Origin: Shigella phage sb3 | Sequence record: PQ666541 | DNA length: 64,000 bases | Reading direction: 5' to 3' (one strand) | Shown here: positions 36,188 to 39,076 of the stretch, in pieces | Layout of the letters: every line of letters begins with the position of its first letter | How positions within the stretch are numbered: the stretch's first letter is position 1 | Position numbers and translations under genes: made by a program | The notes under the pieces: model-generated | Told to the model about the DNA's origin: nothing | Databases searched by the model: none | What the model saw: the letters and a program-made list of their open reading frames with translations, nothing else

Positions 36188-36643
36188 TTAAAAGAGGCTG
36201 TTCATTATTCGGTAAAGTGAAGGACCCATCACATATTGCCACTGAGTACGAGGAATAAGAGCAAAAGCATCCATCTCTGGAATCATAACGCCATCTTTAT
36301 TTTCAAAATAAGATTCGCAATGGCAATTTCTAAACATCTCATGCTCTACTGGAATCGTATAATAAAATAACTGCAAGTCTTTATTACTAGAATATTTAAA
36401 TACACCTAGGTCTTCTAGAAGGTCTGGATTATAATCGATAAAACCAGTCTCTTCTGAGCATTCTCTTTTTGCAGCTTCCAGTGCATTCAAATCAGAACTT
36501 TCTACACGCCCCTTTGGAATATCCCAGCGATGTGCCATCATTCCAGACTTACGAGAACCAGTAACTCGTCCCATAAATAAATCTTTATCTTCTGTCATAA
36601 AGATAATACCAGCTGATAATGTTTTCATTTTAATTTCCTGCAT
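36188..36643 (-). CDS. nudE: Nudix hydrolase NudE
   Basis: 151 aa with Nudix box GRVESSDLNALEAAKRECSEETGF. Confidence 0.8.
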   Translation of the reverse strand: MQEIKMKTLSAGIIFMTEDKDLFMGRVTGSRKSGMMAHRWDIPKGRVESSDLNALEAAKRECSEETGFIDYNPDLLEDLGVFKYSSNKDLQLFYYTIPVEHEMFRNCHCESYFENKDGVMIPEMDAFALIPRTQWQYVMGPSLYRIMNSLF

Positions 36644-37113
36644 TCAGTGATAAAGTTATTTAAATTTTGAGTATATTTCTTTTCATCAAAAATCTTTTGT
36701 TGTCTGCGTAGCCGCCATGGCATTTCAATGAACGTGTACCATATCCCAGATAATATTGCTGCTGTCAAAATATTAACAAGTATGGTTAAAAGAATCCAAT
36801 CTTCTATTCTGTCCATTGGATTTTTTATGAAAAAGTAAAATACGAATGATGTCACAGGAAGACTAATAATATACCACAGAATCATAATTTTATCTGTGAA
36901 CCAATCAGCGTTCGTTAACTTAGCGCGACCATTATGAATACACACGAATTTATCGTCTGTTATAGTAGATGGCTTAACTGGTTGATATCCCATTCTAAAC
37001 TCCCTAATCAACAAATTTTTCATATCTTCGGAACAGCCATTCCAATCAACTCTATCAACTGGAATGCCATCATCCCCATCATCTAAATCATACCAGCGAG
37101 TTTTTAAAATCAT
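36625..37113 (-). CDS. Small membrane protein (paralogue family)
   Basis: 162 aa, 2 TM helices, C-terminus ...FITECRKLK. Confidence 0.45.
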   Translation of the reverse strand: MILKTRWYDLDDGDDGIPVDRVDWNGCSEDMKNLLIREFRMGYQPVKPSTITDDKFVCIHNGRAKLTNADWFTDKIMILWYIISLPVTSFVFYFFIKNPMDRIEDWILLTILVNILTAAILSGIWYTFIEMPWRLRRQQKIFDEKKYTQNLNNFITECRKLK

Positions 37114-37484
37114 TTAATTTTCCTGCAATCGCTCACGAACTCTTCCATTGATTCTTTTTCAATATAAGACATGTAGTTGTTATATTCTTTTAATTGTATT
37201 TTGTAATCCTTCTTTCTTTGCCAATTTATTTTAAAATTATCATAATGAAAATATAGTATAGTACCAAAGAATGAAAATAATGAAATCGCTATAGTATAAC
37301 GAAGTTCGCTCCAAACCTCTGTTATATCTACTATATTGCTGACATTACTATCGATGTTTAAAATAATACAGTCAATCATTAATCCAATAAGACTACCAGC
37401 AAGAGCTACAGCCAACGCCACAGCAAAAATTAAAAATGACTCAGAAAAAGAATATTTGACTTTATTTAGTTTTGGCTTTTGCAT
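37110..37484 (-). CDS. Small membrane protein (paralogue family)
   Basis: 124 aa, 2 TM helices, C-terminus ...FVSDCRKIK. Confidence 0.45.
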   Translation of the reverse strand: MQKPKLNKVKYSFSESFLIFAVALAVALAGSLIGLMIDCIILNIDSNVSNIVDITEVWSELRYTIAISLFSFFGTILYFHYDNFKINWQRKKDYKIQLKEYNNYMSYIEKESMEEFVSDCRKIK

Positions 37485-37879
37485 CGTGATTCCTTAACAA
37501 ATTTCATAATTTCATTAAATTCATACATATTTAGTTTAAGCTGGTGTTCCTTTTTAATCTTTTTACACTGAGCTTTCCATTCACGTACACGTTTACGATA
37601 ATGCCTTCCTTGATACCAATATCCTACCCAATTTACAGGTACCAATAAAAATGGAACTACTAATGGAAGAATTAATACTAACAAAAATATTACGCCAGAT
37701 TCAATATCAGTCATAACGTCTATAACCATTCCAGCAATCAGCAGAATCACAAATGATACAGCTGTCACAGGACCTATTAATACATCAGTAGAAATTAGCT
37801 GACGCTTTGGTTCATACTTCACAGGTTTACTTGGAAGGTATAGTGATGGCTTTGACATATTCTCTACATTCCTTAACAA
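37466..37879 (-). CDS. Small membrane protein (paralogue family)
   Basis: 137 aa, 2-3 TM helices. Confidence 0.45.
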   Translation of the reverse strand: MLRNVENMSKPSLYLPSKPVKYEPKRQLISTDVLIGPVTAVSFVILLIAGMVIDVMTDIESGVIFLLVLILPLVVPFLLVPVNWVGYWYQGRHYRKRVREWKAQCKKIKKEHQLKLNMYEFNEIMKFVKESRCKSQN

Positions 37880-38441
37880 ATTTTTCTAATAATAAATCGC
37901 TTTCAAAATTGGGATTTTCTACGAATTTATCAAAAAGATCATCAACAATAGTCAAGATATTCTTTTTGCTAAGAATACGTTTATTTTCATGCTTTGTTTC
38001 AGAATCAACTATAAGAGTAAAGAAATATTTCTTTCCCTGAAATTTTACCGTAGTATCAATATAAAATAAATTTGACTTTTGTAAATTACGTTTAAACCAT
38101 GCGTCACTTAAACTATAAACGCCAAGATAATCATAATCGTCATTTAAATAACAAACTGTCCATTCAGGAGAAATGAAATCAGTAAATTCAACATCAAAAT
38201 CACATGTCAATGAATGAATTGATTCAATACTTTTAATGAGTATTCCAGGACGTATTAAAGACTTTTTACCTCTATAAAATCTTCCAGAAAGACTTTCATC
38301 AGTTTCATATGAAGACCCCCAATAGTAATTACGTCCTTCTGCCATGCGTTTAAGAGCATTTAGTAATTGGTCTGGAACATCAACCTGTCTTTGGAACTCT
38401 TCAAACATTGAATTGAAATCACTTTGCATTTTCATTTTCAT
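37827..38441 (-). CDS. Hypothetical protein
   Basis: 204-aa ORF. Confidence 0.45.
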   Translation of the reverse strand: MKMKMQSDFNSMFEEFQRQVDVPDQLLNALKRMAEGRNYYWGSSYETDESLSGRFYRGKKSLIRPGILIKSIESIHSLTCDFDVEFTDFISPEWTVCYLNDDYDYLGVYSLSDAWFKRNLQKSNLFYIDTTVKFQGKKYFFTLIVDSETKHENKRILSKKNILTIVDDLFDKFVENPNFESDLLLEKFVKECREYVKAITIPSK

Positions 38442-38460
38442 TCCTATTTACTCCAAGTAT

Positions 38461-38478
38461 AAGGGGCCGAAGCCCCTT
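38461..38478 (-). terminator. Intercistronic stem-loop
   Basis: aaggggccgaagcccctt inverted repeat. Confidence 0.35.
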
Positions 38479-38482
38479 ATCA

Positions 38483-39076
38483 TTATTTCAGAGAATTAAT
38501 GTATTCCTGAACATCGGCAGAGGTAGTTTCAACCCCAGAAATATTACCGTTAAAGGTTTCAACTCGAGCAAGGGTATCTTCAATATCAACCTTAGTCAGT
38601 GCTGCAATTTCAACTACATCATCGGCAGTACTAATTCCAAGGGCATTTGCCGCACGAGTTTCACGGATATATTCCAATTTAACCGCAAGTTCTTGACGAG
38701 CATCATCTAACTCAACTACTTTCTTGGCGATTTCAATTCGCATTTCAGCATAACCGTCAGCCTTAGTAGTCAACTGCTCAGCTGTTCGACGATATAGTAA
38801 ACCGAGTTTAGCATGCATTGTTACATCTTGGCCTTCGGAAAGAAGTTTACGAATTTCACGCTCTTTTGATTCGGCCTGTCGATTCTTTTCGATAACAAGT
38901 TCACGAATACGTTTTTCTTCGTTAATAGATTTAACAGAAGCAGTTTTTAGATCTTTAATTTTATCAAGTAGTTTTGCTGCTGCAGCAGTATACTGTTCTT
39001 CGACAGATAGATTTTTAGCCATAGCAGAACCAAGTTTAGTGCGAATAAACTCAACAATTTTCTTCAGTGTGTTCAT
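38483..39076 (-). CDS. Coiled-coil protein, PspA/IM30-like
   Basis: 197 aa, amphipathic N-terminus then long heptad-rich helices; resemblance to PspA by pattern only. Confidence 0.4.

Follow-up and report, generated by a model that had tools for sequence, protein, structure and literature searches.

In phage shock protein (Psp) systems, small membrane partners such as PspB/C and LiaI recruit PspA or LiaH, as set out in a survey of these systems (PMC11237479) and in a 2025 review of ESCRT-III proteins (PMC7619361); phage-encoded homologs are mentioned in neither. Here we describe the e.2–e.6 gene cluster of Shigella phage sb3, analyzed in a stretch of 64,000 nucleotides from sequence record PQ666541 (the whole stretch is referred to below as the window). 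The window is 95–97% identical to Tequatrovirus genomes (e.g. Shigella phage KNP5), identifying sb3 as a T4-like phage, and gene names follow from comparing the window with T4 and with other annotated records. Our analysis suggests that the cluster specifies a previously unrecognized Psp-like system that is phage-encoded and highly divergent, with a partner set and a peptide motif of its own.

T4 is the best-studied lytic phage, and e.2–e.6 are still ‘hypothetical’ both in its annotation, where e.2–e.4 already appear as ‘predicted membrane proteins’, and in two 2025 genome-wide screens. CRISPRi-ART (PMC11879866) gives the function of e.2–e.8 as unknown and reports no fitness effect of their knock-down. 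HIDEN-SEQ (bioRxiv 10.1101/2025.11.20.689424) scored e.2–e.8 as non-essential throughout, with insertions in e.6 tolerated at 43/43 sites, and scored the lysozyme gene e as essential in the same screen. In the literature library searched, no paper linked T4 e.6 to PspA.

The central gene of the cluster is e.6 (38483–39076, minus strand), which encodes a protein of 197 aa. We consider it very probable that this protein belongs, as a divergent representative, to the PspA/IM30/Vipp1 family (ESCRT-III superfamily), an estimate that rests mainly on a chain of sequence matches. The initial annotation had pointed to a PspA/IM30 resemblance, and this holds through bridging family members, not through a direct Pfam match. 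For e.6 itself there was no match to Pfam PF04012 at E ≤ 1, no match in a phmmer search of the PDB, and no significant pairwise similarity to E. coli PspA; its close homologs carry no precomputed Pfam domain. A profile built from close homologs (A1, 48–99% identity) and searched against 1.84 billion protein representatives delineated a compact family with 45 members, almost all of them 195–205 aa in length. With Vipp1, the A1 profile gave matches only at E 2–4.

The bridge is formed by P0065 and P0066, which match the e.6 profile over their full length (E 1.3e-21 and 2.6e-20) and also score 35.1 and 39.0 bits, respectively, on Pfam PspA_IM30 (PF04012), for which the curated cutoff is 33.9. Their alignment to PspA_IM30 extends from profile positions 2–3 to 143, with no competing families below E 0.03. 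P0066 aligns with e.6 in BLASTP over 194 residues with one gap (25% identity, E 1e-13), and its gene has uvsX and a gene for a gp41-type helicase as neighbors on a T4-like contig. A further remote member, P0073, originates from a Morganella-phage lineage, not from Ackermannviridae, and gives reciprocal matches to T4-type e.6 in about 1,000 phages. When the profile was broadened to include remote e.6 members (A2), it matched Vipp1 chains at E 9.3e-5 to 1e-3, collinearly over residues 1–146 against 1–147. In hhalign, A2 aligned collinearly with an enterobacterial PspA alignment (1–177 against 1–174) at a probability of 52–63%; hhalign comparisons of the e.6 alignments with a single PspA sequence, and of the close-homolog alignment with the enterobacterial PspA alignment, were not significant. 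The PspA template profile was shallow (Neff 1.2), because the homolog search with E. coli PspA gave only sequences at least 86% identical to it.

The AF2 model of e.6 agrees with this assignment. It has a predicted local distance difference test (pLDDT) score of 74.8 overall and above 85 in the hairpin, and comprises helix alpha0 at residues 3–20 (low pLDDT), a hairpin of two long helices at 25–80 and 86–145, and short helices at 165–175 and 186–196. This modeled layout resembles the alpha0–alpha5 plan of PspA/ESCRT-III proteins and includes the long alpha1/alpha2+3 helical hairpin. The amphipathic N-terminus and long helices noted in the initial annotation are both present in the prediction, the former with a hydrophobic moment of 0.45 (E. 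coli PspA 0.42, Vipp1 0.57) that is reached by 6.4% of shuffled sequences and is modest evidence by itself. Alpha0 aligns with Vipp1 residues 1–22, with F10, I11, and K14 nearly invariant. Towards the C-terminus, residues 150–182 align weakly (E 0.12) with PspA 148–178 (DEAMARFESFERR; the alpha4 ‘F-E-x-x-E’ region and alpha5), and model confidence is low at residues 148–163.

A Foldseek search of the PDB with the model placed Vipp1 at ranks 1–8, followed by archaeal CdvB2. In BFVD, the first named matches outside the family were a ‘Snf7 family protein’ and the ‘PspA/IM30 family protein’ of Acinetobacter phage ME3, and the matches place e.6 relatives in Ackermannviridae too. Such likeness could also arise by convergence or compositional bias, e.6 then being a generic coiled coil. 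This is very improbable: in three independent comparisons collinearity begins at residue 1 and extends to about 146–177, length and helix boundaries agree with those of PspA/Vipp1, two members of the family exceed the curated cutoff with no competitor as described above, and Vipp1, CdvB2, Snf7, and PspA come first among the named outside matches in two structure libraries. Homologs of e.6 were found in 1,106 of 50,697 phage records, labeled only ‘hypothetical’ or ‘host specificity protein’; we found no evidence supporting the latter label, which is attached to many e.6 records (e.g. H12, H19, and H29).

The second component is a short C-terminal motif. The initial annotation had observed that two of the small membrane proteins end in ECRKLK and DCRKIK. 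Both endings are present, and both are part of a longer protein motif, [LIV]-[ED/N]-x-F-[IV]-x-x-C-R, which is a new observation here. It occurs in the tails of e.3 (EEFVSDCR; F116–R121 at 37122–37139) and e.2 (NNFITECR; F154–R159 at 36637–36654), but also in the soluble protein e.5 (37827–38441, minus strand, 204 aa), as LEKFVKECR at residues 185–193 (F188–R193 at 37863–37880), and in degenerate form, FVKESRC (37481–37501), in the basic cytoplasmic tail of e.4. Within the window it is found in e.2, e.3, and e.5 only, and the T4 genome contains it three times among 830 six-frame open reading frames (ORFs), again in e.2, e.3, and e.5.

Motif statistics were obtained for ORFs of at least 70 aa in 40 related loci retrieved with the e.6 profile. 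Sense-strand ORFs contain 96 copies of the core F-[IVL]-x-x-C-R, 92 of them inside the last 25 residues. The C-terminal motif is present in 92/854 sense-strand ORFs vs. 0/383 antisense ORFs, far above chance, and its carriers are proteins of 100–180 aa with two transmembrane (TM) helices and soluble proteins of 90–290 aa. In a 15-member alignment of e.5-position proteins, which are 13–18% identical, the only invariant columns are N100, F188, C192, and R193. In a model of e.5 that is of low confidence (pLDDT 58.8), the motif forms part of a predicted helix at the C-terminus, and the e.5 family profile gave no match in the PDB or Pfam. The e.5 homologs P0210–P0223 have a precomputed assignment to Pfam PF26876. 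One record labels e.5 a ‘site-specific RNA endonuclease’, a label for which we found no evidence.

The initial annotation had interpreted the shared ending as a ribosome-binding junction for the next gene, and this is a partial account. In e.2 and e.3, the codons TGC-AGG-AAA that encode CRK provide an AGGA Shine–Dalgarno sequence 7–8 nt ahead of the next ATG, and across the loci the next ATG mostly lies 2–28 nt past the Arg codon. In addition, an exact 16-nt repeat, AAATTTGTTAAGGAAT (37868–37883 and 37489–37504, minus strand, 100% identity), is common to the e.5/e.4 and e.4/e.3 junctions, where it encodes K-F-V-K-E and also supplies the following gene with its ribosome-binding site, AAGGA; it points to recent duplication or gene conversion and leaves the motif in general unexplained. 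One could propose from these features that the ending is a DNA- or translation-level junction, supplying a ribosome-binding site and microhomology for the duplication and shuffling of cassettes, with no functional peptide. Codon usage argues otherwise. Across 79 distinct nucleotide contexts, Phe is encoded by TTT (54) or TTC (25), Cys by TGC (43) or TGT (36), and Arg by all six codons (AGA 26, CGT 21, AGG 16, CGC 8, CGA 6, and CGG 2). The use of all six Arg codons indicates that the motif is conserved at the protein level, and on this ground a pure ribosome-binding-site or junction feature was rejected. Furthermore, the motif is kept with up to 15–24 residues after it, or with the next ATG 60–84 nt away; its Phe, Ile, and upstream Leu/Glu are too distant to belong to a ribosome-binding site; and F, C, and R make up three of the four columns invariant in the e.5 family. 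We therefore regard a junction without a functional peptide as very unlikely.

The motif is linked to e.6 by gene order. In 36 of the 40 loci the strict motif is found in the gene immediately after e.6, and it is likewise found in two more in which that gene is split, giving 38 of 40. Small TM proteins, numbering one to four and many of them motif-bearing, are encoded within the next few genes in about three-quarters of the loci. The e.6 gene of Pseudotevenvirus (RB43 and Cronobacter phage D6b) is ~33% identical and has been relocated between nrdD and nrdG; no TM proteins are encoded nearby, and the adjacent gene ends in …LEKFIHSCKKNV…, a version of the motif in which Lys replaces Arg. No clean motif is seen in the three e.6-like loci that are most remote, and in one of them (L045) two membrane-anchored ORFs follow. 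Overall, e.6 and a motif-bearing gene are adjacent across Straboviridae, even after relocation of the pair. Because the Pseudotevenvirus pair persists without TM proteins, the conserved unit is e.6 with its motif-bearing partner (e.5), and the two-TM proteins are lineage-specific additions. The membrane-targeting module envisaged in the initial annotation is accordingly sustained as regards conserved synteny, with a different core: e.5 had been overlooked, and the two-TM proteins are the variable part. Nor does e.6 lie ‘a few genes upstream’ of the membrane proteins, as had been stated, since only e.5 separates it from e.4.

The variable part consists in the window of e.4, e.3, and e.2. The e.2 gene (36625–37113, minus strand, 162 aa) is intact, e.3 occupies 37110–37484 (minus strand, 124 aa), and e.4 occupies 37466–37858 (minus strand) when read from the ATG at 37858 used in the T4 annotation (130 aa), or 37466–37879 (minus strand) in a longer form from an upstream TTG (137 aa). 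The positions and lengths first reported (162, 124, and 137 aa) agree with these, the last corresponding to the TTG start. TM helices were called by hydropathy analysis, with Kyte–Doolittle as the primary scale. Both helices are strong in e.2 (78–96 and 107–125) and in e.4 (28–46 and 55–73); in e.3 the first is strong (17–35) and the second marginal (61–79), the latter shared, at an unchanged position, by 12 of the 14 scored homologs. The soluble controls e.5, e.6, and nudE gave scores far from the TM range. The proposal of three two-TM proteins is thus clear for e.2 and e.4 and partly so for e.3. With TM helices predicted and a PspA-family link present, the latter via intermediates and not by a direct Pfam match of e.6 itself, neither of the two findings that would have spoken against the original proposal was obtained.

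Relative to e.3 and e.4, e.2 has an extra N-terminal cytoplasmic domain of ~75 aa, followed by the two-TM hairpin and the tail motif. All three proteins have basic N-termini and tails and acidic loops, a charge distribution compatible with an N-in/C-in orientation, in which the C-terminal tails would be cytoplasmic. They are distant paralogs connected via e.3, consistent with the paralogy suggested in the initial annotation. In BLASTP, e.2 matches e.3 at E 0.003 over 78 residues comprising the loop, TM2, and tail (Smith–Waterman z 5.4, with 0/300 shuffles reaching the score), and e.3 matches e.4 at E 0.039 (z 4.8). A common N-terminal signature, M-x-K-P-x-L…V-K-Y, is found in e.3 and e.4, and separately built family alignments of the two were matched by hhalign over 41 tail columns (probability 88.6%, E 2.6e-6). 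Iterated e.3 and e.4 profiles match reciprocally (6.5e-5 and 2.4e-6), with reversed-sequence decoys at E > 3; direct comparison of e.2 with e.4 detected no significant similarity.

Each of e.2–e.6 belongs to a separate PHROG family; that of e.2 is labeled ‘membrane protein’, and a functional assignment is lacking for the other four. None of the five proteins had a match in Pfam, NCBIfam, or PADLOC. In these same libraries e.2–e.4 do not belong to the PspB, PspC, LiaI-LiaF-TM, or PspM families, and the analogy to them is one of architecture and gene position alone. In the T4 reference genome (NC_000866, 67472–67960), e.2 is annotated as 102 aa and differs from the window gene by a 1-nt deletion and a 1-nt insertion ~87 nt apart. 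Because of these –1 and +1 indels relative to the intact 162-aa gene, the T4 reference e.2 either is a pseudogene or carries sequencing errors.

The cluster lies in a stretch of low GC content transcribed from the minus strand. A consensus scan identified a strong T4-early-type sigma-70 promoter for e.6 at 39118–39146 (minus strand; TTTACA-17-TATAAT with TG, 11/12 matches). No late promoter (TATAAATA) is present within 36188–39150, and late promoters occur only just upstream of e (36165–36185). Directly past the e.6 stop codon is a GC-rich stem-loop with the core GGGGCUUCGGCCCC (38459–38480, minus strand; dG –15.6 kcal/mol, z –2.5). Of 20 loci sampled (L004–L055), 19 have a GC-rich stem-loop at this position, with differing stem sequences and, in several cases, a T-run. 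This positional conservation suggests attenuation between e.6 and its partners, and the element may be an attenuator or a 3′ stabilizer. Further downstream, overlaps of 4 nt (e.3/e.2) and 19 nt (e.4/e.3 and e.2/nudE) lie within the 4–20 nt range first reported. Because the genes overlap one another, e.5, e.4, e.3, e.2, and nudE probably form one translationally coupled string, with nudE as its last member.

The nudE gene (36188–36643, minus strand, 151 aa) encodes a Nudix hydrolase, as assigned from the Pfam NUDIX match (E 8e-13) and the T4 annotation, and is followed by the lysozyme gene e (35657–36151, minus strand, 164 aa). A Nudix hydrolase gene is located near e.6 in two distant lineages: in the window, where it is coupled to e.2, and in L047 (5200–5610), a Morganella-phage-type contig in which it lies two genes upstream of the e.6 homolog. 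A link between the Nudix enzyme and the invariant Cys-Arg of the motif, e.g. through ADP-ribose chemistry, is pure speculation.

How might these components work together? That they form an early-expressed Psp-like module, in which the shared motif docks the partners onto e.6, is in our view an evenly balanced proposition. In such a module e.6, made early, would use alpha0 and the hairpin to bind the inner membrane on its cytoplasmic side, polymerize in the manner of PspA, and stabilize or remodel the membrane during infection. The common C-terminal helix would be a docking handle, most parsimoniously for e.6. The two-TM proteins e.2–e.4 would bring e.6 to the membrane or anchor it there, a part played for PspA-type partners by PspB/PspC, LiaI, and PspM, and soluble e.5 might act as an adaptor or regulator, while the conserved hairpin after e.6 would keep the level of e.6 above that of its partners. 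A plausible rationale is that, owing to host shut-off by T4, an infected host should be unable to induce a Psp response of its own.

Some observations would also fit a different role for the membrane proteins, as independent early effectors (superinfection exclusion, counter-defense, or lysis timing) that merely lie beside e.6 in a hyperplastic region, their motif serving some common fate that does not involve e.6, for instance as a degron, as a site of modification, or in host-factor binding. The number of TM proteins varies from 0 to 4 by lineage, and Pseudotevenvirus e.6 has none; modification at the invariant Cys-Arg is conceivable, and the translationally coupled nudE encodes a Nudix (ADP-ribose) hydrolase. 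The proteins also conform to the traits of class II holins, which are small, with two TM helices, N-in/C-in topology, and a charged C-terminus, and they have basic tails and are encoded near the lysozyme gene. A holin role was nevertheless rejected: the missing late promoter makes a function of this type unlikely, and e.2–e.4 are non-essential, whereas lysis genes, including e, are essential in the same screen. Against independent effectors more generally, the same motif is present on e.5, which stays beside e.6 despite relocation, and it is absent elsewhere in T4. On balance we consider that e.2–e.4 are unlikely to be independent effectors.

The proposal of docking onto e.6 can be extended to a more general one, which we put forward tentatively and hold to be somewhat doubtful as a whole. 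T4-like phages may carry their own Psp/ESCRT-III-type membrane maintenance, consisting of an e.6 polymer, rapidly diversifying two-TM anchors, tuning by e.5, and one docking helix, [LIV]-E-x-F-I-x-x-C-R. Such a system would replace the silenced host Psp response and possibly blunt abortive-infection effectors that depolarize the membrane.

In gene order, e.6 is preceded by e.7, e.8, two internal-protein-like genes, and a block of ten tRNA genes. The e.7 gene (39119–39664, minus strand) has its own early-type promoter at 39704–39676 and encodes 181 aa in the window, 176 aa in close relatives, and 111 aa in T4. Two ORFs beyond e.8 (40210–40773 and 40899–41372, minus strand) and a third on the other side of the cluster (34698–35171, minus strand) have N-termini resembling the capsid-targeting sequences of T4 internal proteins (MKTYAEFLTEAA, MKSYAQFLNEAV, and MKTYKEFIAEAA, respectively), and T4 holds different internal-protein genes at the places of these three ORFs. 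The first two are tandem paralogs in phrog_2280 (no known function), and the third belongs to phrog_3155, ‘internal virion protein’. Near-identical terminator hairpins (AGCCCC…GAAAGGTTGGGGCT, then TTTT) come after each of the tandem genes, at 40868–40891 and 41427–41450 (minus strand), an arrangement that resembles a repeated regulatory cassette. The tRNA block (41767–42598, minus strand) contains genes for Arg, Asn, Tyr, Met, Thr, Ser, Pro, Gly, Leu, and Gln. Compared with the eight tRNA genes of T4, Asn, Tyr, and Met are present, Ile is absent, and the segB insertion is also absent.

Placing e.6, which has a fixed partner gene and is found in ~1,100 sequenced phages, among the PspA-type proteins would give a testable function to conserved phage ‘dark matter’, and makes it conceivable that the integrity of the inner membrane is actively managed by large lytic phages. 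The motif, being a short and mutable peptide, offers an experimental handle. If it docks onto e.6, it would represent a new mode of recruitment for a bacterial-type ESCRT-III protein.

Comparison with described systems places the cluster closest to those built around PspA homologs. Both e.6 and E. coli PspA have an N-terminal amphipathic helix and a long helical hairpin, are about 200–220 aa in length, and align collinearly; e.6 differs in its shorter C-terminus and in having no significant pairwise similarity to the E. coli protein. In the psp operon as in the e.6 cluster, genes for small inner-membrane proteins with cytoplasmic segments come directly after (PMC7619361). Unlike the psp operon, the phage cluster has no PspF-type regulator and is preceded by a phage early promoter, not a sigma-54 promoter, and e.2–e.4 differ from PspB/C in being unrelated in sequence (no Pfam match), in having two TM helices, and in their distinct F-[IV]-x-x-C-R tail.

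The best profile match (E 9.3e-5) and the best Foldseek match of e.6 are both to Vipp1/IM30 of cyanobacteria and chloroplasts (PDB 7o3w, 6zvr, and 8qfv), at 15–18% identity, and the alpha0 helices of the two align residue for residue. Vipp1 differs in having an additional C-terminal helix, alpha6, and a role in thylakoid biogenesis. Virus-encoded members of the same superfamily include the ‘PspA/IM30 family protein’ of Acinetobacter phage vB_AbaM_ME3 and the ‘Snf7 family protein’ of Megaviridae; these are recognizable by standard annotation, whereas the e.6 family is not, and has a conserved partner of its own. Within T4, the proteins of rIIA/rIIB (‘membrane integrity protector’ in the T4 record) are unrelated to those of the e.6 cluster but are likewise early and non-essential, and are linked to membrane integrity during infection.

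For the relationship of e.4, e.3, and e.2 to e.6, the closest functional analogy is LiaI-LiaH of B. subtilis and PspM-PspA of Mycobacterium, in which a small multi-TM protein encoded beside a PspA homolog recruits it to the membrane (PMC7619361, PMC11237479); by this analogy, the phage proteins would recruit e.6. No sequence relationship to LiaI or PspM was detected, and in place of such a single anchor the phage has several tandem, rapidly diversifying ones, together with the soluble motif-bearing e.5.

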